NCBI RefSeq assembly: GCF_963921235.1
Contig: NC_086097.1
Location: forward strand, 1,798,001-1,862,000
Source of the DNA: Mobula hypostoma
Lineage: Eukaryota
Reading direction: 5' to 3'
Length of the DNA: 64,000 nt
This document shows positions 1 through 62,406 of the stretch, in pieces. The notes below the pieces were generated by a model. The model searched no databases, was not told where the DNA came from, and saw nothing but the letters and a program-made list of their open reading frames with translations. The position numbers and the translations under genes were made by a program. Every line of letters starts with the position of its first letter. Position 1 is the first letter of the stretch.

Positions 1-611
1 GTTTGGGGCTCTGAATGATGGCAAGAGAGGAGGTGTAGGGACAGGTGTAGCACTTGCGCTTACAGGGATAAGTGCCAAGTGGGAGATCCGTGGGGAGTGT
101 GGACCAGGGAGTTGCGGAGGGACCGATCCCTGTGGAGGGGGGTGGAGGGAGAAAAATGTGCTTAGTGGTGGGGTCCTGTTGAAGGTGGCAGAAATTGCGG
201 AGGATAATGTGCTGGATCCGGAGACTGGTGGGGTGGTAGGTGAGGACAAGGGGAACTCTGTCCCTGTTGTGGTGACGGGAGGATGGGGTGAAGGCCGAAG
301 TGCGGGAAATGGAGGAGATGCAGGTGAGGGCATCATTAATGACAGCAGAAGGGAAACCATGATCCTTAAAGAAAGAGGGCATCTGAGATGTCCTGGAATG
401 GAAAACCTCATCATCGGAGCAGGTGTGGCAAAGACGGAGGAACTGGGAATAGAAAATGGCATTTTTGCATGTGGCGGGGTGGGAAGAGGTAGTTATGAGA
501 GTCAGTGGGCTTGCAGAAGATGACAGTGGACAGTCTGTCTCCAGAGATGGAGACCAAGAGATCAAAAAAGGGGAGAGAAGTGTCCGAGATAGACCAAATG
601 AATTTGAGGGC
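1..611 (-). mobile_element. Degraded Penelope-like element fragment (RT C-terminus to RT/EN linker)
   Basis: Colinear with the minus-strand Penelope copy at ~63180-63830 (e.g. gtttggggctctgaatgatgg, ggataagtgcca, gatccctgtgga) but more diverged; runs off the window start. Confidence 0.85.
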
Positions 612-7549: not shown

Positions 7550-10405
7550 AGATTAACTTAGAACGAGGATCAATAGGTGGAACTATGACATTGTGGCCAT
7601 TACAGAGACTTGGATGTCTCAGGAGCAGGAATGACTGCTGAGTGTGCCGGGCTTTAGAAATTTCAAAGAGAACAGAGAGGGAGGCAAAAGAGGTGTGGGC
7701 ATGGCATTGCTAATTAGGGACAGTGTCACGGCTGCAGAAAAGGAGGAAGTTATGGAGGGATTGTCTACTGAGTCAGTGTGGGTGGAAGTCAGAAACAGGA
7801 AAGGGGCAATAACTCTACTGGGTGATTTTTATAGACCCCCATAGTAACAGAGACATCGAGGAGCAGATAGGGAGGCAGATTCTGGAACGGTGCAATAATA
7901 ATAGGGTTGTTGTGATGGAAATTTTTAACTTTCCTAATATTGATTGGCATCGCCTTAGCAGAAGGGGCTTAGATGGGGTGGAGTTAGCTAAGTGTGTTCA
8001 GGAAGGTTTCCTGACACAATATGTAGATAAGCCAACTAGAGGAGAGGCTGTACTTGATCTGGTATTGGGAAATGAACCTGGTCAGGTGTCAGATCTCATA
8101 GTGGGAGAGCATTTTGGAGGTAAGTGATCACAACTCTATCTCCTTCACCATAATGCTGGAGAGGGATAGGAACAGACAATTTGGGAAAACATTTAATTGG
8201 AGTAAGGGGAAATATGATGCTGTTAGGCAGGAACTTGGGAGCATAAATTGGGAGCAGATGTTCTTAGGGAAATGCATGGCAGAAATGTGGCAAATGTTCA
8301 AGGACTATTTGCATGGAGTTCTGCATAGTTATGTTCCACTGAGGCAGAGAAAGGATGAGAGGGTAAAGTAAACATGGTGTACAAAGAATGTAGAAAATCT
8401 GGTTAAGAAAAGATTACAAAAGGTTCAAGAAACTAGGTACTGTTAGAGCTCTAGAAAATTACAAGGTTGCTAGGAAGGAGTTGAAGAATGGAATTAGGAG
8501 AGCCAGAAGGGGCCATGAGAAGGCCTTGGCGAGCAGGATTAAGGAAAACCCCAAGGCATTCTGCAAGTATGTGAAGAGCAAGAGGATGAGATACGTGAGA
8601 CTAGGATCAGTCAGGTGCAATAGTGGAAACATGCATGGAGTTGGAGGGGGTTGCGGAGGTATTTAATGAATACTTTGCTTCAGTATTCACCAGGGAAAGG
8701 GAACTTGGCAATTGTGGGGATGACTTACAGCGGACTGAAACACTTGAGCATATAGACATTAAGGAAGAGGAGGTGCTGGAGCTTTTGAAAAGCATTAAAT
8801 TAGATAAGTCACCTGGACTAGATGAGATATACCCCAAACTACTGTGGGAAGCGAGGGAGGAGATTGCTGAGCCTCTGGCGATGATCTTTGTGTCAGGGAG
8901 AGGTTCCAGAGGATTGGAGGGTTGAAAATGTTGTTCCCTTGTTCAAGAAAGGTAGTAGAGATAACCCAGGAAATTATAGACCAGTGAGTCTTACTTCAGT
9001 AGTGGGCAAGTTTTTGGAGAATATCCTGAGAGACAGGATTTATGAGCATTTGGAGAGACATAATCTGATTAGGGACAGTGAGCATGGCTTTGTCAAGGGC
9101 AGGTCGTGCCTTACGAGCCTGATTTAATTCTTTGAGGATGTACCAAAATACCTTGATGAAGGTAGAGCAGTGGATGTAGTGTATGTGGATTTCAGCAAGG
9201 CATTTGATAAGGTACCCCATGCAAGGCTTATTGAGAAAGTAAGGAGGCATGGGATCCAAGGGGTCTTTGTGTTGTGGACCCAGAATTGGTCTGCCTACAG
9301 AATGCAAAGGGTGGTTGCAGATGGTTCATATTCTACAAGGAGGCCGGTGACCAGTGGTGTTCCACAGGGACCTGTTCTGGGACCCCTCCTTTTTGTGGTT
9401 TTTATAAATGACCTGGATGAGGAAGTAGAAGGGTGGGTTAGTAACACACATCAAAGTTGCTGGTGAACGCAGCAGGTTAGTAAGTTTGCTGATGACACAA
9501 AGGTTGGGGGTGTTGTGGATAGTGTGGAGGGTTGTCAGAGGTTACAGTGGGACATCGATAGGATGCAGAACTGGGCTGAGAAGTGGCAGACGGAGTTCAA
9601 CCCAGATAAGTGTGAGGTGGTTCATTTTGGTAGGTCAAATATGATGGCAGAATATAGTATTAATGGTAAGACACTTGGCAGTGTGGAGGATCAGAGGGAT
9701 CTTGAGGTCCATGTCCATATGACAATCAAAGCTGCTGTGCAGTTTGACAGTGTTGTTAAGAAGGTGTATGGTGTGTTGGCATTTATCAACCGTAGGATTG
9801 AGTTCAAGAGCAGTGAGGTAATGTTACAGCTATATAAAACCTTGGTCAGACACCACTTGGAGTACTGTGTTTAGTTTTGGTTACCTCACTACAGGAAGGA
9901 TGTGGATGCTATAGAGAGAGTGCAGAGGAGATTTACATGGATGTTGTCTGGATTGGAGGGTGTACCTCATGAGAATAAGTTGAGTGAACTTGGCCTTTTC
10001 TCCTTGGAGCGACGGAGGATGAGAGGTGACCTGATAGAGGTGTATAAAATGATGGGAGGCACTTATCGTGTGGATAGCCAGAAGCTTTTTCCCAGGGCTG
10101 AAATGGCTAACATGAGGGGCATAGTTTTAAGGTGCTTGGAAATAGGTACCGAGGGGATGTCAGGGGTAAGTTTTTCACACTGAGAGTGGTGGGTGCGTGG
10201 AATGCACTGCAGGTGGCGGTGGTGGTGGTGGAAGTGGATAAAATAGGATCTTTTAAGAACCTCTTAGATAGGTACATGGAGCTTAGAAAAATAGAGGGCT
10301 ATGCGCTAGGGAAATTCTTGGAAGTTTCTAAAGTAGGTTACATTGTTGGCACAACATTGTAGGCCGAAGGACCTGTAATGTGCTGTAGATTTCTATGTTC
10401 TATGT
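7550..10405 (+). mobile_element. CR1 LINE ORF2 (APE + RT), frameshifted, with 3' UTR
   Basis: APE residues (ITETW, YRPP, FNFPNIDW, SDHNSISF) and RT motifs ([21 protein letters not shown]); ttctatg tail; same subfamily as 45298-48660. Confidence 0.92.
9445..9474 (-). mobile_element. 30-bp Penelope tail micro-insertion with 9-bp TSD
   Basis: cacacatcaaagttgctggtgaacgcagca is identical to the PLE tail near 25848-25877; flanked by ggttagtaa at 9436-9444 and 9475-9483. Confidence 0.85.
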
Positions 10406-13063: not shown

Positions 13064-13610
13064 TAGTCACTAACCAAACTCATAATCAACTCACCGCAAA
13101 CTCCCTCCATCCAGTCACTGACCCAACTAGATACGAATTCTCTCCGTCCAACCTCTGACCAAACTCATAATCAACACAAACTCTCCGTCCAGTCACTGAC
13201 CAAACTCAATCATCACAAACTCTCCGTCCAGTCACTGACCAATCTCATAATAAACACAAACTCTCCGTCCAGCCACTGACCAAACTCATAATCAACACAA
13301 ACTCTCCGTCCAGTCACTGACCAAACTCATAATCAACACAAACTCTCCGTCCAGTCACTGACCAAACTCATAATACACACAAACTCTCCGTCCAGCCACT
13401 GACCAAACTCAATCATCACAAACTCTCCATCCAGCCACTGACCAAACTCAATCATCACAAACTCTCCATCCAGTCACTGACCAAACTCATAATCAACACA
13501 AACTCTCCGTCCAGTCACTGACCAAACTCATAATAAACACAAACCCTTTCCGTCCAACCTCTGACCAAACTCAATCATCACAAACTCTCTGTCCAGTCAC
13601 TGACCAAATT
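13064..13610. repeat. Minisatellite, 39-41 bp unit (aactctccgtccagtcactgaccaaactcataatcaacaca), ~13 copies
   Basis: Direct tandem units starting at 13218, 13259, 13300... Confidence 0.95.
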
Positions 13611-16185: not shown

Positions 16186-16410
16186 CAGCCACTGACCAAA
16201 CTCAATCAACATAAACTCTCTCCATCCAGTCACTGACGAAACTCACAATCAGCACAAACTCTCTCCGTCCAGTCACTGACCAAGCTCAATCAACAGCTTC
16301 AACTGCATCCAAACTCAAACCAGCTCACTCTGAACTACCTCTGCCCACTGACCAAGCTCCACACCACGAACTCCCTCTGTCCAGTCACTGATGAACCTGA
16401 ATCAACACCG
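16186..16410. repeat. Continuation of the 39-41 bp minisatellite, degenerating
   Basis: cagccactgaccaaactcaatcaac, ctctccgtccagtcactgacc. Confidence 0.9.
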
Positions 16411-16419
16411 CAAATTCCC

Positions 16420-17330
16420 CCCGCCAGTCACCGACCCCCCCCTCCTTGTCCCACCCCTCATCCCTCTCCCCTCCCTGTCCCACCCCTCGGCCCTCTCCCC
16501 TCCCTGTTCCACCCTCGGCTCTCTCCCCACCTCTCCGGCCCCTCTGTCCTCTCCCCTCCCCCATCAACCCCTCTCCTCTTTGCCCCCCCCACCAACCCCT
16601 AGGCTCCTCGCCCCTCTTCCCTCCATCAGTAGCCTGTCAGCCCCTATCCCGTTTTGCCCTTCTCCCCTCAACCCCTCGGCCTCCTCTCCCTTCCCTCCCA
16701 ACTCCTCGTCCCGTCCCCCTCCCTCTCTGACCCCTTGGCCCCTCCCCTCTCTCTCTGACCCCTTTGCCTTTCTCCCCTACCATCCTCCCTCTCCAACCCC
16801 TCGGCCCCATTCCTTTCTCTCACCGACCCTTCAGCCCATCTCCCCTCCCTCACTGACCACTTGGTCCTTCTCCCTTTCCCCAACCAACCCCCCCGGCCCT
16901 CTTCCCTCCCTCAGTAACCTCTCAGCCACTATACCCTCCCTTCCCTCAGTTACCTCTCAGTCTCTATCCCTCCCCTCCCCCAGTAACCTCTCAGCCCTGC
17001 CCCTATTCCCCTCCCCTCCTCTCCGACCCCTCGGCCCTTCTCCCCTGACTCTCAGACACGTCTGCCTTTCTCCCCCTCCGCTCCTCTCCCCTCATCCCCT
17101 CAACTCCCCTCCCCTCGCCTTCCTTTCCGACCCCTCAACTCCTTCCCTCCCTCTCCGAACCCTCGACCTCTCTCCCCTGCCTCTCCGGCCCTCTCCCTCG
17201 CCAGCCACTCTGCCCTGCCTCAGTAACTCCTCGGCCGGCCCCCCTTCACTGAACCCCTACACCCTCACGCTACTCTCACGACCCCTCGGTCCCTCTCATT
17301 GCTGTCTCCCTCTCCTCACCCTCCAGCTAC
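16420..17330. repeat. C/T-rich low-complexity tract
   Basis: Strongly pyrimidine-biased on +; recurring accc(c)tcggcccc. Confidence 0.9.
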
Positions 17331-17525
17331 GCCACGCCCCTCTCTCCGCCAATCCACGTTTGCAGCTCAGTTGCTAGGGGACAGTGTGATCGACGTAGAT
17401 GTATCAACGTCACCCCGTGTTTCCACGGATACCGTGACGTTCATGAACGGCTGACGTCTGAACGCATCTCCCGGTTTGGCAGTTGTTAGGGCGCATGTGC
17501 GGTTGCTAGGGCTGGCGGTCTGAGG
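17331..17525. promoter_or_regulatory. CpG-rich candidate (bidirectional) promoter with RFX X-boxes
   Basis: ccacgcccc (SP/KLF) 17332; CCAAT 17349; X-boxes gttgctaggggac 17370 and gtttccacggatac 17419; gttg(t/c)taggg 17482 and 17502; CRE half-sites 17407, 17435, 17452; NRF1-like gcgcatgtgc 17491. Confidence 0.6.
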
Positions 17526-17529
17526 GTTG

Positions 17530-17740
17530 CCTTGAGCAAGGCGCTTAACCACACATTGCTCTGCGACCACACTGGTGCTAAGCTGTATCGGCCCTAGTGC
17601 CCTTCCCTTGGACAACGTCGCTGGCGTGGAGAGGGGATACTCGCAGCATGGGCAACTGCTGGTCTTCCATACAACCTTGCCCAGGCCTGCGCCCTGTTCC
17701 AGGCGCAGATCCATGGTCTCGCAAGACTAACGGATGCCTA
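17530..17740 (+). mobile_element. 5'-truncated SINE with CORE-like body
   Basis: ccttgagcaaggc...acattgctct is shared with the tRNA-headed SINE at 33907-34126; the 3' tail differs. Confidence 0.55.
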
Positions 17741-17761
17741 TTTATTTGAAGCTGGATAAAA

Positions 17762-18250
17762 ATAGAGGGAGGGAGTGAAGGGGGTAGAGGGGGTGTAGGT
17801 GAGAGGAGAGGAGCGTGGGAAGGAGGGGTAAGGGGAATGGGAGGGGGAGAAGGGGTTGAAGAGGGGTAAAGGGAGAGGAGAGGAATGAAAGTGGAAGAGG
17901 GCAGAGCAGGGTTGGGGAAGTGATAAGGGAGGGAGAAGAGGGTAAGGGTAGAGGAAGGGGAGTGGGAAGGAGGGGGATGGGGAGGGGAGGTAGGGGTTGG
18001 GGAATGGGGAGAAGGCGGGTGAAGGGGAAGAGTAGGGATGGGGAGGGGAGAGACAGGGCTGAGGGGTAAGGAGAGGAGAGGGGAAGGGGACAGGAGGGGG
18101 AGAGGAGGATGGTGGGGATGGGGAGGGGAGACAGGAGGGTGGGTGAAGAGGGGGAGGGAGAAGATGTGAAGGGTGGAAGTGATGACAGCAAGAGGGAGCA
18201 AGGGAGGGGAGAAGAGAAGGAGGGGGTGAGGAGGGAGGAGGGCGAGAGAG
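17762..18250. repeat. G/A-rich low-complexity tract
   Basis: Almost all purines on +, with many GGG runs. Confidence 0.9.
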
Positions 18251-18769
18251 ATCGGGTGACTGGAATTGTGGAGTGCGAGGCTCAAGAATTCTGGAAATAC
18301 GAAATAAAATCAGAAAGTTCTGATGAAGGCGTCGGGCAGCATGTGTAAGAGAGTGGGGCAGAGTTTGTGTTTTAAACTCATGGCTTTCTCACAACTGAAT
18401 ACCTGTGGGTTTTCTGCTGGAGAGAATAGCTAGTTATGTTACTTCATTTAAAAAGGGCCCAGGGAGGATGCAGGAGAACATAGCATTGCTGTAGAGTCAT
18501 AGGAAAGTACAGCACAGAAGCAGGCCCTTTGGCCCATCTAGTCTGTGGTGAACCATTTAAACTGCCTATTCCCAACAACCTGCACCTGGACCATAGCCCT
18601 CCATACCCCTACCATCCATGTACCTTGCCAAACTTCTCTTAAATGTTGAAATCAAGCTTGCATGCATCACTTGTGCTGGCATCTCATTCCATACTCTCAC
18701 AAACTGAGTGAACAAGTTTTCCCACCTCTTCTCCTTAAATGGAGCCTAATGTCCAAGGATACACACTGT

Positions 18770-22799: not shown

Positions 22800-25700
22800 T
22801 TTCACTTTTCACCTTTAATCCAAAATTTTTGATTGCAGTCCCACCCAGTCTCAGTGGGAAAAAGCCTGCTTGCATTTACCCTAGCTATACCCCTCATAAT
22901 TTTGTATACCTCTATCAAATCTCCCCTCATTCTCCTACACTGTAGGGAATACAGTACTAACCTATTCAATCTTTCCTTATAACTCAGGTTCTCCAGTCCC
23001 GGCAACATCCTTGTAAATCTTTTACTGTCCTCTTTCAACCTGGTTTACATCTTTCCAGTGGCTAAGTGACCAAAACTGCGCATAATATTCCAAATTACGC
23101 CTCACCAACATCTTATACACTTCAACATAACATCTCATTTCCTGTACTCAATACTTTGATTTTGATTTGTGTAGCAAGAGGTCCTGCATAGAAAATTTGT
23201 TTGAGTTTTTTGAGGAAGTCTTGATTATTACTGAGGGTGGAGCATAGGATGTAGTCTTCATGGACTCGCAGTTGACGAGGTCCCTCACAGTAGGCTGATC
23301 TGAGATATTATGTCACATGGGTATGTTGGATACAATATTGTAGAAGATAGAGGGAAGTGGTGGAGTGACAAGAGGCCTGTGACCAGTGGTATTCTGCGGT
23401 GATCAGCGCTGGGATTTCTGTTGTTTCTGATATATGATCTGGACAAAAATGTAAGTGAGCTGATCAGTAAGTTTGCAGACAACAGAAAAAGTTGGCAGAG
23501 TTGTGGTTAGCGAGGAAGGTTGCCAATTTTTATTTATGCACCATAGAAAGCATTTTGTCTGAATGCATAATGTCCTGGTATGGCAACTGTTCTAGGCATG
23601 ATTGCAAGGAACTAGAGAGTTACGGACACAGCTCAGAACCTTCTGTCCATAGACTCTGACTACACTTCCCATTGGCTCGGTAAAGCAGCCAGCATAGTCA
23701 AAGACCCCCTCCCACCCCACCCCCGGGTCACTCTCTGCTCTCCCCTCTCCCGTTGGCCTGAGCGCATGTACCACTGGACCCAAAGACAGCTTTTGTCCTG
23801 CTGTTATAAGGTTCCCTTGTTATGATCTTATATCTTTTGTTAACCTCTACCACACTTTCTCTGTAGTTGTTACTGTTTATTCTGAGGTCCCCATGAGGGT
23901 CTTGGCCTAACAGATTGACTGTTTATTTCCCTTCGCTGTATTTTGATACTTCTGACAATAATAAACCAATTTTCCCTGGGCGGATAATGGTGGGGCTTCT
24001 GTATTGCAGTTGATAGTGATGGAACGGGTCCTTTGGTCTCATCTATCCATACCTCTCCCATCTATGAACCTATCCAAATTTCTCCTCGTGCTCGATTCCA
24101 CACTCTCACTACCCTCTGAGCGAAAAGATTCGCCCTCATGTTCCCCTTAAATATTTCACCGTTCAACCTATGTTCTAGTTCTAGTCTCACCCAGCCTCAG
24201 GTGAAAAGCTCTGCTTGCATTTACCCTGCCTATACCCCTCATAATTTTGTACACCTTCCTCAAATCTCTCCTCAATCTCCTCCACTCCAGGGAACAAAGT
24301 CCGAAACCTATTCAACCTTTCCCTGTAACTCAGGTCCTAGTACCATCCTTGCCAATTTCCTCTGCACTCTTTCAATCTTATTGATATCTTTCCTGTAGAT
24401 AGGTAACCAGAACTGCCCACAATACTCCAAATTAGACCTCATCAACATCTTATACACTTCAACTCCTGTACTTAATATCGATGTTAAACAACAACAGACC
24501 CAGCACCGATCCCTGTGGCACGCACACCACTAGTCCAGGCTCTACTCGGAGATAACCCTCTATTATCTCTCTGTCATCTTCCTGCTAAACCGATGTTGCA
24601 TACACCCTGAATGCTGTATGATTTAACCTTCTGGACCAGCCTCCCATGGATAACTTACCTTGCTGAAGTCCATGTAGACTTTGGATTCTCCTTCCCCTTG
24701 TCTGCTAGAACAACTTCATGCCTCCTTCTAGCCCCCATGATTTCCCTATTTGAGTGCACTCTTACATTTGTTATATTCCTCAAGCAGCTCATTTGATCCT
24801 ATCTGTCTACAGCTGTGGTGCGCCTTCTTTTTCAGAGTATTGTACATTCCTTATCAAAGTATGTATGCATTAAACAATCTTGAGATTTGTCTCCTTGCAG
24901 CCACAAACAAAGAGACCCAAAGGAACCCTTTAATACAGAAGACCATTAAACACCCAGTTTGTAGAGGAAAAAAAATCATGCAAACAATAAACGCAAGCAA
25001 ATAGCATTTTGAACTGAAGTCCACAAAGAGTCCGTCCAGCACAGAGCCGAGTAATCGTAATAGTATCACTTTATCCGATTGTAAAGCATTTTGAACTACA
25101 TTGTATGAAAAGTGCTCAGTTAATATGTTATTATTATTAATATCCAGGGCTGCAATGTCTCTCGAAACCAAGCCTCCCTAAAGCTGTTATCCTTGCCGTT
25201 TATTCTAACAGGAACGTACAAACTCTGTACTCTCAATATTTCACTTTTGAGGGCCTCACACGCACCAAGCATCCCTTCGCTGGAAGACAGTCTGTCCCAA
25301 TCTACATTTGCCACCCAATCCGGATGATTGCTGAGACTCTGCTGATGTGAGTGCTCCTTGCTGCCTATTTGCCCATGTCTGCCTGTAGCCCAGACCTCAA
25401 GGTGAGTGCAATGCATGGTGAGTTGGTCACGTGGGTTCAGAATTGGCTTGTCCACAGAAGACAGGCAGTAGTTATTCTGGCTGGCTGTCTGTGATCAATG
25501 GTGTTCCGAAAGGGTCTGTTCTCAGACCGCTGCTGTTTGTAATATATAGAATTGTCCTAGATGAAAATGTTGATGGGTGTGTTAGTAAGTTTGCAGGCAA
25601 TGTAAAAACTGGTGGTATTGTGGGTAGTGTAAAAGACTGGCAAATAATACAGCATGATATAGATCAATTCAAGATATGGGCAGAGAAATGGCAGATGGAG

Positions 25701-25806
25701 TATAATACAGTCGATAATGAAGTGTGGCATTTTCGGAGATGAAAAGTACACTGTTGCTGTCTGAATTAGAGGCCATGAGCTATAACGAGAGGCTAGACAA
25801 ACTTGG
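22800..25806. mobile_element. Patchwork of short CR1 and Rex1 fragments on both strands
   Basis: e.g. RRMRGDLIEVYKIMRG (- 22802-23038) and GVPKGSVLRPLLFVIY (+ 25431-25742). Confidence 0.7.
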
Positions 25807-25906
25807 ACAAACAACAGGAATTCTGCAGATGCTGGAAATTCAAGCAACACACATCAAAGTTGCTGGTGAACGCAGCAGGCCAAGCAGCATCTATAGGAAG
25901 AGGCGC

Positions 25907-25942
25907 AGTCGACGTTTCAGGCCGAGACCCTTCATCAGGACT
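25907..25942 (-). ncRNA. Minimal type I hammerhead ribozyme, intact core
   Basis: Minus strand reads AGTC-CTGATGA-AGG(GTCTCGG)CCT-GAAA-CGTC-GACT. Confidence 0.8.
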
Positions 25943-27121
25943 AACTGAAGGAAAAGTGAGTAAGGGATTTGAAAGCTGGAGGGGGAGGGGGAGATGCAAA
26001 ATGATAGGAGAAGACAGGAGGGGGAGGGATGGAGCTGAGAGCTGGACAGGTGATAGGCAAAAGGGGATACGAGAGGATCATGGGACAGGAGGTCTGGGAA
26101 GAAAGACGGGGGGGGGGGACCCAGAGGATGGGCAAGAGGTATATTCAGAGGGACAGAGGGAGAAAAAGGAGAGTGAGAGAAATAATGTGTGCATAAAAAT
26201 GAGTAACAGATGGGGTACGAGGGGGAGGTGGGGCCTAGCGGAAGTTAGAGAAGTCAATGTTCATGCCATCAGGTTGGAGGCTACCCAGACGGAATATAAG
26301 GTGTTGTTCCTCCAACCTGAGTGTGGCTTTATCTTTACAGTAGAGGAGGCCGTGGATAGACATGTCAGAATGGGAATGGGATGTGGAATTAAAATGTGTG
26401 GCCACTGGGAGATCCTGCTTTCTCTGGCGGACAGAGCGTAGATGTTCAGCAAAGCGGTCTCCCAGTCTGCGTCGGGTCTCACCAATATATAAAAGGCCAC
26501 ATCGGGAGCACCGGACGCAGTATATCACCCCAGTCGACTCACAGGTGAAGTGATGCCTCACCTGGAAGGACTGTTTGGGGCCCTGAATGGTGGTAAGGGA
26601 GGAAGTGTAAGGGCATGTGTAGCACTTGTTCCGCTTACACGGATAAGTGCCAGGAGGGAGATCAGTGGGGAGGGATGGGGGGGACGAATGGACAAGGGAG
26701 TTGTGTAGGGAGCGATCCCTGCGGAATGCAGAGTCTTCCTCAGATCCCACCGTCAACTCCTGGGCCCTCAGAGGCTCCATCTTCCTCTCACCCCAACCCT
26801 CCCCTCTCCACTGACACCCCCAGCCTCCCCCCTCCCCCCTCTGATCCCAGCTCTCATCCGTGCCGGGTCTTTACCATCCCCTCCGACCTTCAACTGTCGG
26901 AGGCAGAACGCTCTGTCCTCAGTAAGGGCCTCACGTTTGTCCCCCTTCGCCCACACCTCAGCGAGTCCCGTGTTCGCCACGATGCGGAACTTTTCTTCCG
27001 CCGTCTCCATCTCTGAGCCTACTTCTTCGGCAAGGACTCTTCCACCCCCACCGATGACCCCTTCTCTCGTCTTCAACCCTCCTCTTCTTCATGGACACCC
27101 CGCTCTGGTCTTCTGCCTGCT

Positions 27122-29056
27122 GTGGATCTCTTTATTGCCAACTGCCGACGGGACATCAACCGTCTCGACTTCACCGCACCTTGTCCCCATTCCAACCTCA
27201 CTCCTTCGGAACGCTCTGCTCTCCACTCCCTCCGCACTAATCCTAACATTATTATTAAACCCGCTGATAAAGGGGGTGCTGTTGTAGTCTGGCGTACTGA
27301 CCTCTACCTTGCCGAGGCACAGCGACAACTCGCGGATACCTCCTCTTATTTACCCCTCGATCGTGACCCCACTAAGGAGCACCAGGCCATTGTCTCCCAC
27401 ACTATCAACGACTTTATCCGCTCAGGGGATCTCCCATCCACTGCTACCAACCTTATAGTTCCCACACCCCGCACTTCCCGTTTCTACCTCCTACCCAAGA
27501 TCCACAAACCTGCCTGTCCTGGCCGACCTATTGTCTCAGCTTGCTCCTGCCCCACCGAACTCGTTTCTGCATACCTCGACACTGTTTTATCACCCCTTGT
27601 TCAATCCCTTCCAACCTATGTTCGTGACACTTCTCAGGCTCTTAAACTTTTCGATGATTTTAAGTTCCCTGGCCCCCACCGCTTTATTTTCACCATGGAT
27701 GTCCAGTCCTTATATACTTCCATCCCCCATCAGGAAGGTCTCAAAGCTCTACGCTTCTTTTTGGATTCCAGACCTAATCAGTTCCCCTCTACCACCACTC
27801 TGCTCCGTCTAGCGGAATTAGTCCTTACTCTTAATAATTTCTCCTTTTGCTCCTCCCATTTCCTCCAAACTAAAGGTGTAGCTATGGGCACCCGTATGGG
27901 TCCTAGCTATGCCTGCCTTTTTGTTGGGTTTGTGGAACAATCTATGTTCCGTGCCTATTCTGGTATCCGTCCCCCACTTTTCCTTCGCTACATCGACGAC
28001 TGCATTGGCGCTGCTTCCTGCACGCATGCAGAACTCGTTGACTTTATTAACTTTGCCTCCAACTTTCACCCTGCCCTCAAGTTTACCTGGTCCATTTCCG
28101 ACACCTCCCTCCCCTTTCTAGATCTTTCTGTCTCTGTCTCTGGAGACAGCTTATCCACTGATGTCTACTATAAGCCTACTGACTCTCACAGCTATCTGGA
28201 CTATTCCTCTTCTCACCCTGTCTCTTGCAAAAACGCCATCCCCTTCTCGCAATTCCTCCGTCTCCGCCGCATCTGCTCTCAGGATGAGGCTTTTCATTCT
28301 AGGACGAGGGAGATGTCTTCGTTTTTTAAAGAAAGGGGCTTCCCTTCCTCCACTATCAACTCTGCTCTTAAACGCATCTCCCCCATTTCATGTACATCTG
28401 CTCTCACTCCATCCTCCCACCACCCCACTAGGAATAGGGTTCCCCTGGTCCTCACCTACCACCCCACCAGCCTCCGGGTCCAACATATTATTCTCCGTAA
28501 CTTCCGCCACCTCCAACGGGATCCCACCACTAAGCACATCTTTCCCTTCCGCCCTCTGTCTGTATTCTGCAGGGATCGCTCCCTACACAACTCCCTTGTC
28601 CATTCGTCCCCCCCATCCCTCCCCACTGATCTCCCTCCTGGCACTTATTCGTGTAAGCGGAACAAGTGCTACACATGCCCTTACACTTCCTCCCTTACCA
28701 CCATTCAGGGCCCCAAACAGTCCTTCCAGGTGAGGCATCACTTCACCTGTGAGTCGACTGGGGTGATATACTGCGTCCGGTGCTCCCGATGTGGCCTTTT
28801 ATATATTGGTGAGACCCGACGCAGACTGGGAGACCGCTTTGCTGAACATCTACGCTCTGTCCGCCAGAGAAAGCAGGATCTCCCAGTGGCCACACATTTT
28901 AATTCCACATCCCATTCCCATTCTGACATGTCTATCCACGGCCTCCTCTACTGTAAAGATGAAGCCACACTCAGGTTGGAGGAACAACACCTTATATTCC
29001 GTCTGGGTAGCCTCCAACCTGATGGCATGAACATTGACTTCTCTAACTTCCGCTAA
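27122..29056 (+). CDS. Penelope-like RT + GIY-YIG endonuclease (open part of a 5'-truncated ORF)
   Basis: IKPADKGG, LLPKIHK, MDVQSLYT, GVAMGTRMGPSYA, RYIDD, linker CKRNKCYTC, VIYCVRCSRCGLLYIGET..RFAEH; the frame extends back to ~26734 across one TGA at 27014-27016. Confidence 0.9.
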   Translation: MDLFIANCRRDINRLDFTAPCPHSNLTPSERSALHSLRTNPNIIIKPADKGGAVVVWRTDLYLAEAQRQLADTSSYLPLDRDPTKEHQAIVSHTINDFIRSGDLPSTATNLIVPTPRTSRFYLLPKIHKPACPGRPIVSACSCPTELVSAYLDTVLSPLVQSLPTYVRDTSQALKLFDDFKFPGPHRFIFTMDVQSLYTSIPHQEGLKALRFFLDSRPNQFPSTTTLLRLAELVLTLNNFSFCSSHFLQTKGVAMGTRMGPSYACLFVGFVEQSMFRAYSGIRPPLFLRYIDDCIGAASCTHAELVDFINFASNFHPALKFTWSISDTSLPFLDLSVSVSGDSLSTDVYYKPTDSHSYLDYSSSHPVSCKNAIPFSQFLRLRRICSQDEAFHSRTREMSSFFKERGFPSSTINSALKRISPISCTSALTPSSHHPTRNRVPLVLTYHPTSLRVQHIILRNFRHLQRDPTTKHIFPFRPLSVFCRDRSLHNSLVHSSPPSLPTDLPPGTYSCKRNKCYTCPYTSSLTTIQGPKQSFQVRHHFTCESTGVIYCVRCSRCGLLYIGETRRRLGDRFAEHLRSVRQRKQDLPVATHFNSTSHSHSDMSIHGLLYCKDEATLRLEEQHLIFRLGSLQPDGMNIDFSNFR

Positions 29057-29350
29057 GGCCCCACCTCCCCCTCGTACCCCATCTGTTACTCATTTTTATG
29101 CACACATTCTTTCTCTCACTCTCCTTTTTCTCCCTCTGTCCCTCTGAATATACCTCTTGCCCATCCTCTGGGTCACCCCCACCCCGTCTTTCTTCCCGGA
29201 CCTCCTGTCCCATGATCCTCTCGTATCCCCTTTTGCCTATCACCTGTCCAGCTCTCGGCTCTATCCCTCCCCCTCCTGTCTTCTCCTATCATTTTGCATC
29301 TCCCCCTCCCCCTCCAGCTTTCAAATCCCTTACTCACTTTTCCTTCAGTT

Positions 29351-29386
29351 AGTCCTGACAAAGGGTCTCAGCCTGAAACGTCGACT
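29351..29386 (+). ncRNA. Hammerhead motif with mutated core (CTGACAA)
   Basis: AGTC-CTGACAA-AGGGTCTCAGCCT-GAAA-CGTC-GACT; G8 changed to A. Confidence 0.7.
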
Positions 29387-29844
29387 GTGCCTCTTCCTAT
29401 AGATGCTGCTTGGCCTGCTGCGTTCACTAGACAAACTTGGGTTGTTTTCTCTGGAGTGGCAGAGCCTGAGGGGTTTACAACATTATGAGAGGGACAAATA
29501 GATTGGACAGTGGTATCTCTTTCCTATGGTTGAAATGTCCAACCATAGGAAAGAGACCATGCATTTAAGATGAGAGGGGGTAAATCAAAGGAGACGTGAC
29601 AGGCGAGATTATGACAGAGTGGTGAGTGCCTGGAATGCGGTGCCTGGGGTTGTGTGAGAGGCAAAATCATAAGATGGAGGCATTTAAGATGCACATGAAT
29701 GTGCAGAGAATGGAAGGATATGGACATTGTGTAGGATTAGTTGATTGGGCATTTAATTACTAATGTAATATATAGTTTGGCCCAACAAGATGGGCTGAAG
29801 GGCCTGTTGCTGTACTGTACATTGTAACTCAGTCTCCCTGTCCG

Positions 29845-29905: not shown

Positions 29906-30124
29906 GTACAGATTGACGGAGCTGCAGCCTGGCACAGAGACACAGTAACATCAGATTGACACTCAGCCCAGTCAGGGTGGTGAGCTAAAGAGGAAGAAAC
30001 TCTCCCCTTGTGTAACGAGGAACTAGCGTCAACCCCAGCCCCCTCTGGCCGCAAGCTCGCAAGCTGTGGGGGTTGTGCAATCAATTGGAGTGCTGTGCGT
30101 ATGGTGCTGATAAAACGTCATAAC

Positions 30125-31176
30125 AACAGCGGCGGGCAGAACGGTGAGTACGGTCACTGTACTGAACAGCGGCGGGCAGAACGGTGAGTACGGTCACTGT
30201 GAACAGGGGTAGACAGAACGGTGAGTACGGTCACTGTGAACAGGGGTAGACAGAACGGTGAGTACGGTCACTGTACTGAACAGCGGCGGGCAGAACGGTG
30301 AGTACGGTCACTGTACTGAACAGCGGCGGGCAGAACGGTGGGTACGGTCACTGTGAACAGGGGTAGACAGAACGGTGGGTACGGTCACTGTGAACAGGGG
30401 TAGACAGAACGGTGAGTACGGTCACTGTACTGAACAGCGGCGGGCAGAACGGTGAGTACAGTCACTGTACTGAACAGCGGCGGGCAGAACGGTGGGTACG
30501 GTCACTGTGAACAGGGGTAGACAGAACGGTGAGTACGGTCACTGTGAACAGGGGTAGACAGAACGATGAGTACGGTCACTGTGAACAGGGGTAGACAGAA
30601 CGGTGGGTACGGTCACTGTACTGAACAGGGGTAGACAGAACGGTGAGTACGGTCACTGTGAACAGGGGTAGACAGAACGGTGAGTACGGTCACTGTGAAC
30701 AGGGGTAGACAGAACGGTGAGTACGGTCACTGTGAACAGGGGCAGACAGAATGGTGAGTACGGTCACTGTGAACAGGGGTAGACAGAACGGTGAGTACGG
30801 TCACTGTGAACAGCGGCGGGCAGAACGGTGGGTACGGTCACTGTGAACAGGGGCAGACAGAACGGTGAGTACGGTCACTGTGAACAGGGGTAGACAGAAC
30901 GGTGGGTACGGTCACTGTACTGAACAGCGGCGGGCAGAACGGTGGGTACGGTCACTGTGAACAGGGGTAGACAGAACGGTGAGTACGGTCACTGTGAACA
31001 GGGGTAGACAGAACGGTGGGTACGGTCACTGTGAACAGGGGTAGACAGAACGGTGAGTACGGTCACTGTGAACAGGGGTAGACAGAACGGTGAGTACGGT
31101 CACTGTACTGAACAGGGGTAGACAGAACGGTGGGTACGGTCACTGTGAACAGGGGTAGACAGAACGGTGAGTACGG
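30125..31176. repeat. Minisatellite, 37/40 bp unit (gaacaggggtagacagaacggtgagtacggtcactgt), ~27 copies
   Basis: Near-perfect tandem; variants cagcggcggg/caggggtaga, gtgag/gtggg and +/- act. Confidence 0.97.
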
Positions 31177-31249
31177 GGTCAGAGTGCACAGTGTCCCGGG
31201 GGTGTGAGTGTGACCCTGGGGTCAGAGTGCACAGTGTCCCGGTGGGATG

Positions 31250-31492
31250 ATTGATTTATTGAGATCCAGCATGGAACAGGCCCTCCCTGCCTGCTCTTTG
31301 AGTCGTACTGACCAGCAACCCACCGATTTAACCCTTGCCTATCACACAGCAATCTCCAATGTCCGATTAGCATACCAACTGGTACGTCTTTGGACCATGG
31401 GAAGAAACCAGAATTTGCAGAGGAAACTGACATGGCCACGGGAAGAACACACACGGTCCTTACAGACAGCAGCTGAGTTGAACCCGGGTCGG
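31250..31492 (-). mobile_element. V-SINE (HE1-like) fragment
   Basis: Minus strand: B-box gggttcaact, V-domain-like ggtttcttcccatggtccaaagacgtacc, CR1-like tail ggcctgttccatgctg. Confidence 0.7.
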
Positions 31493-32164: not shown

Positions 32165-35100
32165 TGGCTACGTTTGAGACTATTGTTGAGTTTGTGGAAG
32201 TAACGGAGGACTGGCCGGAGAATGAGGAAAGGTTGGGACACTTTTTCTGTGCTAATGGAATTACTGAGGAGGCTAAGAAGCGCTCTATTCTCCTGAGTGC
32301 GTGTGGGGCGAAGACTTACAAGCTAACTTCAGGAATTTAGCTGCGCCGCGGAAACCGGGGGACAGTCCATTTGATGAACTGGTCAAGCTCTTGCGGAACC
32401 ACTACAATCCGAACCCTTCTGTGACAGTCCAGCGGTGTAAGTTCCACAGCCGTTTCAGGAAGCCAGGTCAGTCTGTGGCCAATTTTGTGGCCGAGCTTTC
32501 GGAGCAGTGTTGGATGACATGCTCCGTGTTAGATTGGTATGCCGCATTAATAATGACGGCATACAACGCCGCCTGTTAGGGAAAACCCCATCGTTGACTT
32601 TCAAGAAAGCCTTGGAGATTGCCCAAGGCATGGCGATGGCTGCTAATATTGTCCAGGATATCCAGAAAGGCCATGGGGGTCGCAGTCGGCGGCAGTGCAC
32701 CGCGTCAGGAGGGAGACTGGTAAACAGGCAAAGCGGGTGGGATGTTTCCAGTGTGGAGGGACGCACGATGCAAATGATTGCAAATTCAAAGACACTGTCT
32801 GCCATGCTTGTAGCGAAAAGGGACATTAGCTAAAAAGTGCAGAAGTTCAAAGGGTAAGTTTAAGCCTGGGCATGGGAAAGGTCAACAGGCTCAGGCAGCC
32901 ACACACCATCTAGAAGAGGCAGCGTGTGCCTACAACATGTTTGCAGTGGGAACAGATGAGGAACCACCTGAACCATATTATGCCACAGTCACTGTCAGGG
33001 GAAAGGACATTAAGTTTCAGATTGATTCAGGGGCTACTGCATCGGTCATTAGTGAGACCTACAGGAGGACCTGGGGGTCCAACCTGCCTCCCATCAGACC
33101 GTCAGGGCTCAAACTTCGGACCTATATGGGGCAGCCCATACCTCATTTAGGGGTGTTATATGTGGACATTTCAGCCGGGGCTCAGAAGGCTGAAGCCAGG
33201 CTAGTGATAACTAAGGGCAGGGGGCCCAGTCTTTTGGGTCGCAATTGGCTTCGCAAAATCCGGCTAAACTGGCATGAAATTAAGTACGCGCACATGACGG
33301 AGGACTTTCTGCAGTGGTACAGTGACGTTTTCAGGGATGAGCTGGGCACACTGAAGGGTGTGACAGTGAAACTCCACGTCAATCTTGAGGCCACACCACG
33401 TTTTTTAAAGCCCAGGTCGGTGCCCTATGCCATGAAAGGAGCTGGAACGTTTACAGAGGCTGGGCATTATTGAGCCCGTCCAGTTTTCAAGGTGGGTGGC
33501 TCCCATTGTTCCAGTTTTGAAGGCAGACAAAACGGTGAGGATATGTGGGGATTATAAGCTTACGGGGAATCAGGTCTCTAGGCTGGAGGAGTACCCATTG
33601 CCACGGGTGGATGACCTGTTTGCGACCCTGCCAGGGGGTAAGCTGTTCACAAAGCTGGACATGAGTCACGCCTACCAACAGCTGCTGCTCGACCAGGATT
33701 CAAAGGAGTGCGTCACCATTAATATGCACAAGGGATTATTCAAGTACAATCACCTGAGTGGCGTCCAGCCCTGCCATTTTCCAAAGGACAATGGACACTT
33801 TGCTGCAGGGGATTCTGCACGTAGCACTGTACCTTGATGATATTTTGATCACGGGGGGCTACGGAGGTGGAGCATCTGGTTAATTTAGAACGGGTGCTGA
33901 AGAGGCACGGTGTGGGCTCCTGGCCAAGTGGTTAAGGCGTTCGTCTAGTGATCTCAAGGTCGCTAGTTGGAGCCTGAGCTGTGGCAGCGTGTTTGTGTCC
34001 TTGAGCAAGGCACATTGCTCTAGTGTCTGTGCGAGGAGTGGTGCCCCACACAGACCTCCAATCTGAACCTTGTAAGGCACGAAAATGCCCGACACAGGCC
34101 TCTCATCGTCTGAGTCAACGTTCCCCGCTGAAGAGGCTCTCAGACGCAGGGCTGCGGTTGAAATGCAGAAAATGTGTGTTCCTGGCGTCGAGTGTGACTT
34201 ACCTGGGACACAAGATCACGGCTGAGGGGCTTTGCTCTGTGGAGGACAAAGTGAGGGCTATTAAGGAGGCCCCAAGCTCCAAGACCGTCATGGAACTCAG
34301 ATCATTTTTAGGCATGGTGAATTATTATGGCAAGTTTCTTCCTGACCTCTCAAGGGTTTTGACCCCACTGTATAAGCTGCTTCACAATGACACTATGTGG
34401 CAGTGGGGTGAAGAGCAGGAGAAAGCTTTCAAGGAAGTGAAAGAACTCCTCCACTCAGTGAAGCTGCTTGTTCACTACGACCCAGACAAGGAGATCACCC
34501 TTGCATGTGATGCCTTGCCCTATGGAGTTGGGGCAGTTCTCTCGCATGTAATGGTGGACCATTCAGAGAAGCCTATTGGTTTTGCTTCACGTACCCTGAC
34601 AGCTGCTGAGAAGGGATATTCACAGCTAGACAAAGAAGGTCTGGCCATTGCTTTTGCAGTCAAATGCTTTTATCAGTACCATTATGGACGTGTATTTACA
34701 ATTTATACGGACCATAAACTACTGATGAGCCTGTTCAGTGAGACTAGATGCATCCTACCGCTAGCCTCAGCCAGGATACAGCATTGTTAGCCTATCAGTA
34801 CACTATAGTGTACAGAGCGGGTGGGGATAATGCAAATGCTGATGCACTGAGTCAACTACCTTTACCTGAGACACCTGTTACGACATATGTGCCTCCAGAG
34901 ACTGTGTTTTCATTGGAGAGGCTGTCAGAGACACCTGTAAAGGTGACCCAGATCAGGCAGTGGACAGAGAGGGACCCAGTCCTGTCCCAAGTCAAGACTT
35001 TTCTTTTACAAGGTTGGCCCAGAGTCGTGGAAGGAGAGGAACTGAGGCCTTATGCCAAACACAAGACAGAACAATCTGCAGGATGGCTGCATTTTCTGGG

Positions 35101-36049
35101 GGGCGAGGGTCATCGTGCCTCCCCCTGGCCATTCACAGATTGTGGAGGAAATTCATGAGATTCACCCAGGGGTGTCTTGAAAGAAAAGCCTTGCAAGATC
35201 CTATGTTTGGTGACCAAGAGTGGATCAGGATCTGGAGAACAAGGTAAAATCATGCACACAATGTCAGACTAATCAGAATATGCCACCACCAGCTCCTTTG
35301 CACCATGGGAGTGGCCAGACCACCCCTGGTCGAGGCTACATTTGGACTTTGCTGGCCCTTTTATGGGGCAAATGTTCCTTGTAATGGTAGATGCGCATTC
35401 TAAATGGATCGAAGCTCACATCATGAGCAACATCACAGCCTCCCCAACCATAGACAAACTCAGGCAAGTGTTTGCAGTCCACGGGTTGCCTGACACACTG
35501 GTCACTGATAATGGCCCGACGTTCACCAGTGAGCTGTTCAGTGAGTTCATGCAGCAGAATGGCATTTGTCACAGTAGGACGGCTCCTTTCCACCCAGCCT
35601 CCAATGGTTTGGCTGAGCGGGCTGTTCAGACAGTGAAGGAAGGCCTGAAGCGGATGACAGGGGACTCTCTTAGCATTTGGCTTTCACGTTTCCTGTTTAA
35701 ATACCACCTCATGCCACAGACTACAACTGCCCGCACTCCGGCAGAGATGCTGATGGGGCATAGGCCCAAGTCACAATTGGACCTGCTGCGTGCAGACATG
35801 AAGGCAAAAGTGGGACAGACTACTGCGGAAGCATGTCCACCAGTGACTTTGCCAGAGGGAGAGACGCTGGCAGAGGGGTCGGGGTCCCCTGAGGAGGATG
35901 GACATTCTCAGACACACACACAGACCCCTCACATGCCCCCAAAACCAGCTCCACCCAAAACACCCTCACCAGCGGTGCCTGCTGGGTCACCGGGGGTAGT
36001 GCGCAGATCACAGTGCACTCGTAAACCTCCTGACAGACTGAACCTTTGA
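32165..36049 (+). pseudogene. Gypsy gag-pol (Gag/CCHC-PR-RT-RNaseH-IN), frameshifted
   Basis: FQIDSGAT, RICGDYK, YLDD (~33830), LACDALPYGVGAVL, DFAGP, TDNGPTF, SNGLAERAV. Confidence 0.92.
33907..34126 (+). mobile_element. tRNA-derived SINE inserted in the Gypsy RT, 11-bp TSD
   Basis: A-box tggccaagtgg, B-box-like agttggagcc, body tgtgtccttgagcaaggcac; TSD gctgaagaggc at 33896-33906 and 34127-34137. Confidence 0.9.
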
Positions 36050-37405: not shown

Positions 37406-37789
37406 CTGAACCTGTTATAGCACCAAGCACACACCTATCACATACCTTGGCGTGAGCTCCTTGGCTTGCCATAGAGTGATGTGCTTCTTGGGTTTTTGAG
37501 CATCTCAATTTACTAATCAGGATCTTAATTAGAGTCTGTATTGTTGGTTCATTGTGACTGGCAGATATTTCCCACATTCCGTGATTATTTAAAGAGGACT
37601 CTCATTCAGTGCCTGAGCGTTGGAGAGAATGTGTCACACTTAGTTGCTCCATGGAGGCTCTGTTGGTATTCCCATGGCTAACCTCTTGTTTTGGTCTCTT
37701 CCTGGGGATCCTGCTGTTCCTCCACACCTGGGAACACCTTCAAGAGTGCACCATGACATACATGAATCAGATACAGCGCACAGCGCACG

Positions 37790-38243
37790 CCTGTTACCTA
37801 CCTGAACCTGTTATCTCTCACACCACACACCTGTTACATGCCTGAACTTGTTACAGCACACACCTGTTACCTACCTGAACCTGTTACAGCACACAGCACA
37901 CACCTGTTACATACCTGAACCTGTTACAGCACACACCACACACCTGTTACATACCTGAACCTGTTACAGCACACACCACACACCTGTTACATGCCTGAAC
38001 CTGTTACCTCACACACCACACACCTGTTACATACTTGAACCTGTTACAGCACACACCACACACCTGTTACATACCTGAACCTGTTACAGCACACACCACA
38101 CACCTGTTACATGCCTGAACCTGTTACAGCACACACCACACACCTGTTACATGCCTGAACCTGTTACAGCACACACCACACACCTGTTACATGCCTGAAC
38201 CTGTTACAGCACACACCACACACCTGTTACAGCACACAGCACA
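37790..38243. repeat. Minisatellite, 40-bp unit (cacctgttacat[a/g]cctgaacctgttacagcacacaccaca), ~11 copies
   Basis: Direct tandem; a diverged monomer lies at ~37400-37445. Confidence 0.95.
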
Positions 38244-38374
38244 CACTGCTGCCTGGTACAAGGAAAGGATAGCTCCAAAATAAACACACCTTGTGGGGCG
38301 GGGCTCTGACCAGCTCGTGTCTGGTTTGTCTTCCTGTGTCGGCAGCTCATGAGGGCAGACTTACTGGATGTGGG

Positions 38375-53346: not shown

Positions 53347-53463
53347 CATCCTGAAGAAGGGTCTCAGCCCGAAATGTTCCATTAATGCTGCCTGACCTGC
53401 AGAGTTCCTCCAGCATGTGTGTGTTGCTTTGGACTTCCAGCATCTGCAAAATTTCTCATGTTT
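53347..53463 (+). mobile_element. Penelope tail fragment with degenerate hammerhead
   Basis: ctgaaga-agggtctcagccc-gaaa-tgtt followed by ...ttccagcatctgca. Confidence 0.65.
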
Positions 53464-57272: not shown

Positions 57273-57650
57273 TCCCTTTAGAAAATAGTCTCCACCTTTA
57301 TTCCTTCCACCAAAGGTCATGAGCATACACTTCCCTACTCTATATTCCAACTGTCACTTCTTTGCCCATTCTGCTAATATTTTTAAGTCCTTCTGCAGTC
57401 TCTTTGCTTTCTCAACACTACCTGCCCCTCCATTTAACTTCATATTGTCTGTAAACTTGGCCACAAAGCCATCAGTTTCTTCACCCTGAACTACCCTGGT
57501 CCTTCACCCTGAACTACCCTGGTTCTCTTCCCTCTATACTCTTATTGCTGTGGCAGGTTTTCTACCTGAAACACTGACCATTCCTCTCCCTGCACAGATA
57601 CCGCACTGAGGAACTTTCATTCAGTCTGCTTGTGACCGTCCCTGTAACTA

Positions 57651-62340: not shown

Positions 62341-62406
62341 TTGGCAGTGTTGTTGGTTCTTCCACTTGTAGGTCCTCCCACTGCCAGTGGGCGGTGATAT
62401 TGATCC

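Follow-up and report, generated by a model that had tools for sequence, protein, structure and literature searches.

In the twin priming known from L1 elements, both strands of the target act as primers and the outcome is an inversion lying within a single target-site duplication (TSD). For Penelope-like elements (PLEs) that carry an endonuclease (EN+), the published pattern comprises an inverted 5'-truncated copy, an optional tail at one end only and a short TSD; the inverted structures have been attributed to self-priming (PMC3846280), and the tail to endonuclease-mediated resolution (PMC8557442). In vitro work on a protein of the Poseidon clade (PMC11167929) shows cutting and extension of both target strands, with initiation at two sites on either side of the tail, and predicts a dimer; the passages drawn on here show no finished head-to-head product, and according to that paper the later steps of insertion await validation.

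The locus described here is a single broken, 5'-truncated Penelope-like insertion in mirror-image layout. It lies in a stretch of 64,000 nucleotides from Mobula hypostoma (NC_086097.1, positions 1,798,001 to 1,862,000; hereafter the window, in whose numbering all positions are given). Inverted 5'-truncated copy, one-ended tail and TSD are all present, so that the layout as such is already known, in keeping with the remark in the preliminary description that PLEs often carry inverted pLTRs. A full-text literature search that did not extend to Repbase, Dfam or most subscription journals gave nothing on this family in rays. The parts of the locus are as follows.

25400..25792, forward strand: left part of the old target LINE, matching other LINE copies in the window at about 66-80%
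25793..25806, forward strand: left TSD copy, 14 bp, identical to 29427-29440
25807..26732, reverse strand: inverted 5'-truncated copy of the element's 3' end, 926 bp, with linker zinc finger, GIY-YIG, 3' pLTR and full tail
25807..25866, reverse strand: stretch of 60 nt present in the left arm only, its outer 36-41 nt being the family's usual tail
26732..26733, no strand: head-to-head inversion junction, with at most 1 nt shared and no palindrome
26733..29426, forward strand: forward unit, 5'-truncated, 2,694 bp, stopping 60 nt before the tail end
28559..29426, forward strand: right arm of the repeat, formed by the 3' end of the forward unit
29427..29440, forward strand: right TSD copy, 14 bp, identical to 25793-25806
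29441..29734, forward strand: right part of the same LINE, which, translated from the right TSD onward, matches residues 209-223 of the reverse transcriptase (RT) frame at 56321-57277

The 14 bp at 25793-25806 and 29427-29440 form the longest exact repeat around both insertion ends, and since none of 400 random pairs of positions subjected to the same search exceeded 9 bp, the 14-bp TSD initially proposed can be accepted; the inner junction at 26732/26733 has no TSD. The left LINE part, when translated, corresponds to residues 194-212 of that RT frame (56321-57277), and as both sides thus match one frame, they continue one another, overlapping by the TSD. The target LINE is one that we take to be CR1/L2-like. 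A Pfam scan of nine long frames in the window gave retroelement domains for five and no match for four, and no host exon was recognised among the long frames scanned.

An inverted repeat of about 870 bp had been noted at the outset, and this is borne out: BLAST aligns 25863-26732 with 29430-28559 at 98.2% over 872, while in exact register (25867-26732 against 28559-29426) there are 866 columns with 13 substitutions and 2 gap columns, the longest perfect run being 311 nt. Set against another copy of the family, at 62.4 kb in the window, the two arms show 63 differences in 862 and 64 in 864 (7.3%), 56 of the substitutions being common to both, so that the arms are far closer to each other than to that copy. 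Seven of the 13 arm-to-arm differences are of CpG type, and at one CpG opposite halves have changed in the two arms (25934 and 29360), as would be expected from independent decay of arms that began identical. It must be remembered that gene conversion between nearby inverted arms could have raised their identity. The variant "ggccaagc" (25883) that had been offered as evidence for a common template is real in both arms, but it is carried by as much as 34% (X4) and 15% (X8) of family depth, and thus marks a subfamily rather than being private. A better witness is position 25954, where both arms share a letter that is absent from 97.6% (X4), 98.3% (X8) and 99.9% (X9) of family depth; summed contig depth, here and below, does not represent a share of copies and is not converted to copy numbers.

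The left arm is indeed longer, by exactly 60 nt (25807-25866) where about 60 had been estimated, and it terminates at the outer end of the family, with three other copies ending 0, 1 and 2 nt away; taken together, the other family copies in the window end either 0-2 nt or 39-41 nt short of 25807, and run X9 has 12 loose ends at 25843. On the right the insertion stops 60 nt short of this outer end, where 36-41 nt would be usual. Each side carries sequence absent from the other, 60 nt in the case of the left arm and 1.8 kb in that of the right unit, and this rules out that either was simply copied from the cDNA of the other. The TSD matches the first 12 nt missing on the right at 10 of 14 columns, a score equalled at the same place by 41 of 5,000 random 14-mers, or by 139 of 1,000 when any one of 31 starts may be used. 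The start at the right end is about 20 nt inward of the usual site, at a point where the target resembles the RNA.

Within the forward unit the coding features are these.

26735..29056, forward strand: reading frame of 773 codons, without a start and with one internal stop, holding DKG motif, RT core, linker and GIY-YIG
27014..27016, forward strand: in-frame stop produced by CpG decay and confined to this copy or a narrow lineage around it
27524..28012, forward strand: RT core (Pfam RVT_1 match at E 2.5e-05, short of the curated cut-off)
28652..28678, forward strand: Cx4CxxC linker motif, residues 640-648
28760..28984, forward strand: GIY-YIG endonuclease, with a CxxC lying between its two motifs and a pair of histidines further downstream (Pfam match at E 6e-04, again short of the curated cut-off)

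The frame thus runs from RT to a C-terminal GIY-YIG, and although both Pfam matches are weak, the motifs are conserved across 120 homologs. A single stop arising from CGA to TGA had been suspected, and family depth does read C at 27014 (98.4% in X4, 96.1% in X8, 100% in X9). The description "near-intact" has to be given up, as the ORF start and a direct 5' pLTR are missing, together with about 125 N-terminal residues (the median shortfall against 50 homologs of at least 850 aa); a profile of 47 homolog N-termini did not find this domain at the locus, while it matched 13 of 13 control proteins, drawn from clusters whose representatives were among the 120 homolog matches.

Judged by its motifs, the element is EN+ Penelope-like and probably of the Neptune clade. 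The linker cannot by itself mark Neptune, as had been asserted, since Cx2-5CxxC is assigned in PMC8557442 to Neptune, Nematis and Naiad, being absent from Penelope/Poseidon; it lies upstream of the endonuclease in 98 of the 101 homologs that have the YIG motif. The endonuclease conforms to the CCHH definition of PMC8557442 (CxxC between the motifs, two conserved histidines downstream). Naiad, in which the EN is N-terminal, is ruled out by the C-terminal position here, and Hydra (DKT, no CCHH, CxCx5C) by the presence of DKG and CCHH. Neptune is itself paraphyletic in PMC8557442, and is favoured over Nematis by elimination, the vertebrates of a preprint having had Neptune and Poseidon but not Nematis. 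Of the original assignment, then, a Penelope-like element with a Cx4CxxC linker is secure, whereas Neptune is only probable. No clade name occurs among the protein homologs (0 of 251 members inspected in clusters 1-7 are named), and a PDB sequence search gave one match, at E 0.11, which is unrelated.

A motif scan also predicts a minimal hammerhead-ribozyme core in the pLTR, once in each arm.

25911..25938, reverse strand: predicted core in the left arm, conserved core letters intact
29355..29382, forward strand: predicted core in the right arm, conserved G8 changed to A

The left-arm core matches the minimal hammerhead described in PMC4209133, and G8 is needed for cleavage in the anole element (PMC11167929). 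The scan finds a core also in the 62.4-kb copy, which folds with stems I and II; the CpG with opposite halves changed in the two arms lies within the core. Rfam returned five weak matches, none of them a hammerhead and all far below gathering scores, and the folding energy of pLTR plus tail was no better than that of shuffles (z-scores -1.4 to +0.7).

The family is very abundant, with 253,037 contigs in X4, and an older version of the layout occurs at 50.9 kb in the window (196 bp, 50923-51105, 13-bp TSD). Contigs were compared with the stretch taken without its right arm. Two listed family contigs (X17 record 3 and X4 record 10) have fits starting at 26733 and do not continue into the left arm, and no contig among the 32 records listed (271,722 others) spans a flank junction or the inversion junction. 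Further antisense-to-sense contig joints connect 25865 to 26434 (X4, X9) and 25901 to 25969 (X4). Joints to 28547/28549 were excluded as the normal continuous element, since the comparison stretch contained the 3' end in reverse orientation alone. In 10 of 40 listed rows (212 in all), the window letter makes up 21-66% of depth in organism A (X4) and at most 3% in organism B (X8). X4 contigs show 0 differences to the flank, and this run may be the source sample; run X9, which may be RNA, leaves the unique left flank uncovered. In X8 a contig of depth 4 agrees with 25676-25806 apart from one difference, and its last 8 letters, beyond the TSD, do not fit, as might be expected of an empty site. 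These X4-enriched letters and the ending of the X8 contig uphold the proposal that the insertion is recent.

It is likely that the locus arose by a single retrotransposition of an EN+ Penelope-like element, probably Neptune, primed from both nicked target strands. Such priming had been put forward in the preliminary description, and it is the most likely route in view of the single TSD, the kinship of the arms, which are far closer to each other than to the 62.4-kb copy, the two 3' start points and the in vitro precedent in PMC11167929. Cutting and extension of both strands at this locus are inferred from that Poseidon precedent. The GIY-YIG domain would have nicked both strands of the old LINE, presumably 14 nt apart, and each nicked 3' end would have served as a primer on element RNA, reverse transcription from the top strand starting at the outer tail end to give 926 nt of cDNA and that from the bottom strand starting 60 nt further in to give 2,694 nt. 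Both cDNAs would have ended early and been fused head to head, overlapping by 1 nt at most (the joining step being postulated), after which fill-in would produce the TSD. The templates would have come from one donor or one narrow lineage, as one RNA molecule or two RNAs. Having no ORF start and no direct 5' pLTR, the copy would have been dead on arrival, and its later drift would be largely CpG decay. Read-through across the arms, as the preliminary description also proposed, might form long dsRNA.

An unlikely alternative is single priming followed by copy-back, in which RT, having made the long right-side cDNA, would switch to its own cDNA or to a self-primed antisense RNA, 60 nt being trimmed from the primed end at resolution. 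PMC3846280 invokes self-priming, which accounts for identical arms with no extra assumptions, and one-sided tails have been ascribed to resolution (PMC8557442); the likeness of the TSD to the first 12 missing nt (10 of 14 columns) could also mark a microhomology deletion. However, the copy-back model rests on junction palindromes, and here there are none, with at most 1 nt shared and 1.8 kb between the arms, while the presence of the 60 nt in the left arm only would require a further loss that left the TSD exact. Very unlikely is a head-to-head structure already existing at the donor locus and copied whole from one read-through RNA: although composite Penelope-like loci can be active donors (PMC3846280), no donor flank was brought along, the left boundary coincides with the outer end of the family and not with a random truncation point, the RNA would form an 866-bp hairpin, and the two listed contigs reaching 26733 do not enter the left arm. 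Finally, separate insertions of two copies at the same spot, or a fold-back artefact of the assembly, might be entertained given the abundance of the family and the absence of a junction-spanning contig among those listed, but either is extremely improbable, as one TSD encloses both arms with none at the inner junction and a near-private letter is common to both, and as a fold-back would leave identical arms, without CpG-type differences, 60-nt asymmetry or TSD.

Beyond the likely two-strand priming at this one locus, it may be suggested, quite tentatively, that head-to-head insertions of Neptune-like elements in rays are the footprint of reverse transcription by a dimer with two primers, and that a nicked target can pick an internal start by pairing with the RNA. 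If true, such target pairing would qualify the in vitro report (PMC11167929) that Penelope-like initiation needs no homology. Taken alone the locus matters little: the copy is dead, its surroundings are rich in repeats and its layout has been published, though it makes a clean example. In a young and abundant ray family with exact TSDs and varied arm lengths, counting could separate two-strand priming from copy-back.

When the locus is compared with L1 twin priming, the use of both target strands as primers and an inversion inside one TSD would be held in common, but in L1 the inverted segment is derived from a more upstream region without duplicating the 3' piece, whereas here 866 nt were copied twice; with this duplication and no poly(A), L1-type twin priming was rejected. 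Neptune (and likewise Nematis) is resembled in the Cx2-5CxxC before a C-terminal GIY-YIG, the CCHH, the DKG, the minimal hammerhead in the pLTR and the vertebrate host, and differs in that the target here is a LINE and not a (TA)n run. With the EN+ insertions of PMC8557442 and PMC3846280 (in the latter, Adineta vaga Pen2a and a Pen2 derivative) the locus shares RT plus C-terminal GIY-YIG, an inverted 5'-truncated copy at the 5' end with flanking inverted repeats, a one-ended tail and a short TSD (8-10 bp in those insertions, 14 bp at this locus, and 9 and 13 bp at others in the window), and with Pen2a (PMC3846280) also a single in-frame stop. It departs from them in having an inverted arm of 866 bp reaching into the endonuclease coding part against about 180-212 bp of pLTR, an asymmetry of 60 nt against 30-40, and neither a direct 5' pLTR nor a junction palindrome. 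PAc, the Poseidon element of Anolis carolinensis, belongs to another clade and, as reported in PMC11167929, has no homology between RNA start site and cut DNA, where here there is a partial likeness and a shifted start; it resembles the locus in having two start sites near the 3' end that bracket the tail, both strands cut and extended, and a hammerhead beside the start sites.

At 25807-29426 a Neptune-like element has inserted head to head, and the insertion is real, clean and ordinary. A 14-bp exact repeat (25793-25806 and 29427-29440) brackets it, and it comprises two pieces:

25807-26732, minus strand: inverted piece, inside the 14-bp target-site duplication (TSD)
26733-29426, plus strand: forward unit, inside the same TSD

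When the same search was applied to 400 random position pairs, the longest repeat found was 9 bp (2/400), and 321 pairs gave no repeat of at least 6 bp. The left arm (the inverted piece) and the right arm (28559-29426, the 3' end of the forward unit) share a part whose alignment is 866 columns long and contains 13 substitutions and 2 gap columns, the left arm being the longer by exactly 60 nt; the exact repeat and this alignment bear out the inverted arms, 14-bp TSD and left-arm excess of about 60 nt of the preliminary description, whose coordinates were correct to within a few bases. The flanks, each translated separately, are the two halves of one old LINE (which we take to be of CR1/L2 type): both match an RT-bearing frame that lies elsewhere in the window, the left at its residues 194-212 and the right at 209-223, and these matches overlap by the target duplication. 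None of the 32 records listed (with 271,722 further) spans a junction, so the assembly here is without read confirmation. Just to the right of the insertion the LINE contains an imperfect 41-bp hairpin (29516-29556), whose match to mir-140 is weak and falls far short of the gathering score.

The frame at 26735-29056 has 773 codons, and its Pfam matches to RT and GIY-YIG are weak, both being below curated cut-offs. Of the 7,999 proteins scored in a homolog search, 1,458 were retrieved, and in an alignment of the best 120 of these 1,458 the DKG motif, RT core, Cx4CxxC linker and CCHH pattern are conserved, the linker being present in 98 of the 101 homologs that have the YIG motif. Among the matches listed, the closest named homologs are from Mobula hypostoma (92% over 59% and 94% over 54% of the query), Hypanus and Chiloscyllium, which makes a ray the most likely host; none of the matches listed carries a clade name. 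The linker had been read as the mark of Neptune; it is indeed present and conserved, but a passage of PMC8557442 assigns linkers of this type to Neptune, Nematis and Naiad. Naiad is ruled out by the C-terminal endonuclease, and Hydra by DKG and CCHH. Since, in addition, the vertebrates covered in the relevant section of preprint 10.64898/2026.07.22.740005 have Neptune and Poseidon, the element is, judged by these motifs, likely to belong to the Neptune clade.

Describing the copy as near-intact proved too generous: relative to 50 homologs of at least 850 aa, a median of 125 residues (range 41-228) is missing upstream of the first codon, and the forward unit has no direct 5' pLTR (Penelope-like element terminal repeat). 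An N-terminus profile built from 47 homologs, which recognises 13/13 control proteins, gave no match at 25807-29426 and three chance-level matches elsewhere in the window, and family contigs in the records listed start fitting at 26733, the letters upstream being different. The frame does have the single internal stop proposed earlier (CGA>TGA), which is CpG decay: in three runs 96-100% of the family's contig depth has C at 27014, this being summed depth rather than copy share.

Several other related copies lie in the window:

62406-64000, minus strand: second same-family copy with full tail and broken frame, 92.6% to the forward unit, running off the window
50923-51105: miniature insertion, head to head, from an older related family, 77-84% alike, 13-bp TSD (50910-50922 and 51106-51118)
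9445-9474 (9436-9483 with TSD): 30-bp piece inside a LINE, identical to the left arm's pLTR, 9-bp TSD
1-611, minus strand: diverged Penelope-like fragment, with 73% identity to the element in DNA and about 62% in protein
1800-1932 and 53349-53463: solo pLTR ends from older related families (about 71% alike), both with a degenerate start resembling a hammerhead

In the miniature insertion the inverted arm, about 127 bp long, keeps the full tail and the forward arm, about 56 bp long, is 39 nt short, while the 30-bp piece stops 39-41 nt short, at the inner 3' site (a 9-bp repeat occurs in 2/400 random pairs). Seven other 3'-end matches were found, three ending 0-2 nt from the outer end (25807, the usual tail end), two 36-41 nt short, and one being the right arm; the seventh, a diverged copy, is 16 nt short in BLAST and 2 nt short on realignment. 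Because copies in the window end either 0-2 or 36-41 nt short, and because 12 loose ends, mixed in sequence, occur at 25843 in X9 (a further sequencing run), the family's 3' ends fall into two classes some 36-41 nt apart.

Each arm differs from the copy at 62406 by 7.3-7.4%, with 56 substitutions common to both arms, this copy being a thin, sole in-window control. Contigs of four runs were also compared over 25300-28550, where 40 of 212 difference rows were listed and summed depth does not measure the share of copies. The variant at 25883, previously remarked on as shared by the arms, is real in both but is a subfamily marker, reaching 34% of depth in X4 (a run of organism A) and 15% in X8 (organism B); 25954, where the arms have a letter absent from 97.6-99.9% of depth in X4, X8 and X9, is the better marker of common origin. 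In 10 of the 40 rows (25904, 25996, 27139, 27248, 27265, 27271, 27403, 27408, 27848 and 27859) the window's letter makes up 21-66% of contig depth in organism A and at most 3% in organism B, which points to expansion of the subfamily after the two species split; each of the remaining 30 is a private change, an older variant or a flank position. An X8 contig (139 letters, depth 4) fits 25676-25806 with 1 difference, and its 8 unfitted end letters past the duplication (not printed) are as would be expected of an empty site. X8 shows 7 differences and 1 gap in 363 nt of unique flank, and X4, possibly the source sample, shows none. With 253,037 contigs in X4 and 173,452 in X8 the family is extremely abundant; many of its variants differ sharply between the two organisms, and between 28.5 kb and 26.8 kb summed depth in both runs drops about sevenfold, the gradient usually left by 5' truncation.

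Seven of the 13 arm differences are of CpG type, and at one CpG opposite halves have changed in the two arms, a pattern consistent with two arms that began identical and decayed independently; gene conversion between them is also conceivable, given a single perfect run of 311 nt.

The locus was probably made by two-strand priming and subsequent joining of truncated cDNAs. According to a portion of PMC11167929, a Poseidon protein cuts and extends both strands, with two internal start sites, one on either side of the tail. Here, top-strand priming at the outer site would give a 926 nt cDNA and bottom-strand priming at an inner site one of 2,694 nt, and the two would then be joined; at the observed junction the pieces overlap by at most 1 nt. 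For 25807-29426 the nicking, its stagger and the joining are our inference, and the templates may have been one RNA molecule or two of the same donor. Copy-back followed by trimming is unlikely: each arm has sequence absent from the other, so neither is a plain copy. That the head-to-head structure was inherited is more doubtful still. Two insertions, or an artefact, would be very surprising; the one TSD, and arms closer to each other (13/866) than to the copy at 62406, uphold the single recent insertion first proposed.

What is odd is that the right end lies 60 nt inside the outer end, about 20 nt past the usual inner site. At this shifted end the duplicated target and the RNA agree in 10/14 columns, a likeness that is a single post hoc case, equalled by 41 of 5,000 random 14-mers at that place and by 139 of 1,000 if any of 31 starts is allowed; it could instead reflect a microhomology deletion.

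RNA read through the whole locus would, by complementarity alone, pair over 866 bp; the copy has no 5' pLTR of its own, and no host gene was recognised in the frames scanned in the window. Other features of the window include an LTR-retrotransposon-like region at 32814-36046 (Pfam matches to aspartic protease, RT-RNase H and integrase), a pyrimidine-rich low-complexity tract (16352-17374) followed by a purine-rich one (17740-18390) with long proline-rich frames, the one scanned having no Pfam match, and three minisatellite arrays:

13089-13588: unit 39-41 nt
30088-31293: unit 37-40 nt
37700-38311: unit 40 nt

Full-text searches found no paper on this Penelope-like family in rays, and the section seen of PMC12602865, which concerns killifish Neptune, leaves inverted structure unmentioned. 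The head-to-head layout itself is already known, similar copies with 9- and 10-bp TSDs being described in part of PMC3846280. The pLTR contains a minimal hammerhead core, intact in the left arm and in the copy at 62406 and with G8 changed in the right arm; it resembles the minimal hammerhead described in an excerpt of PMC4209133, and Rfam did not detect it.
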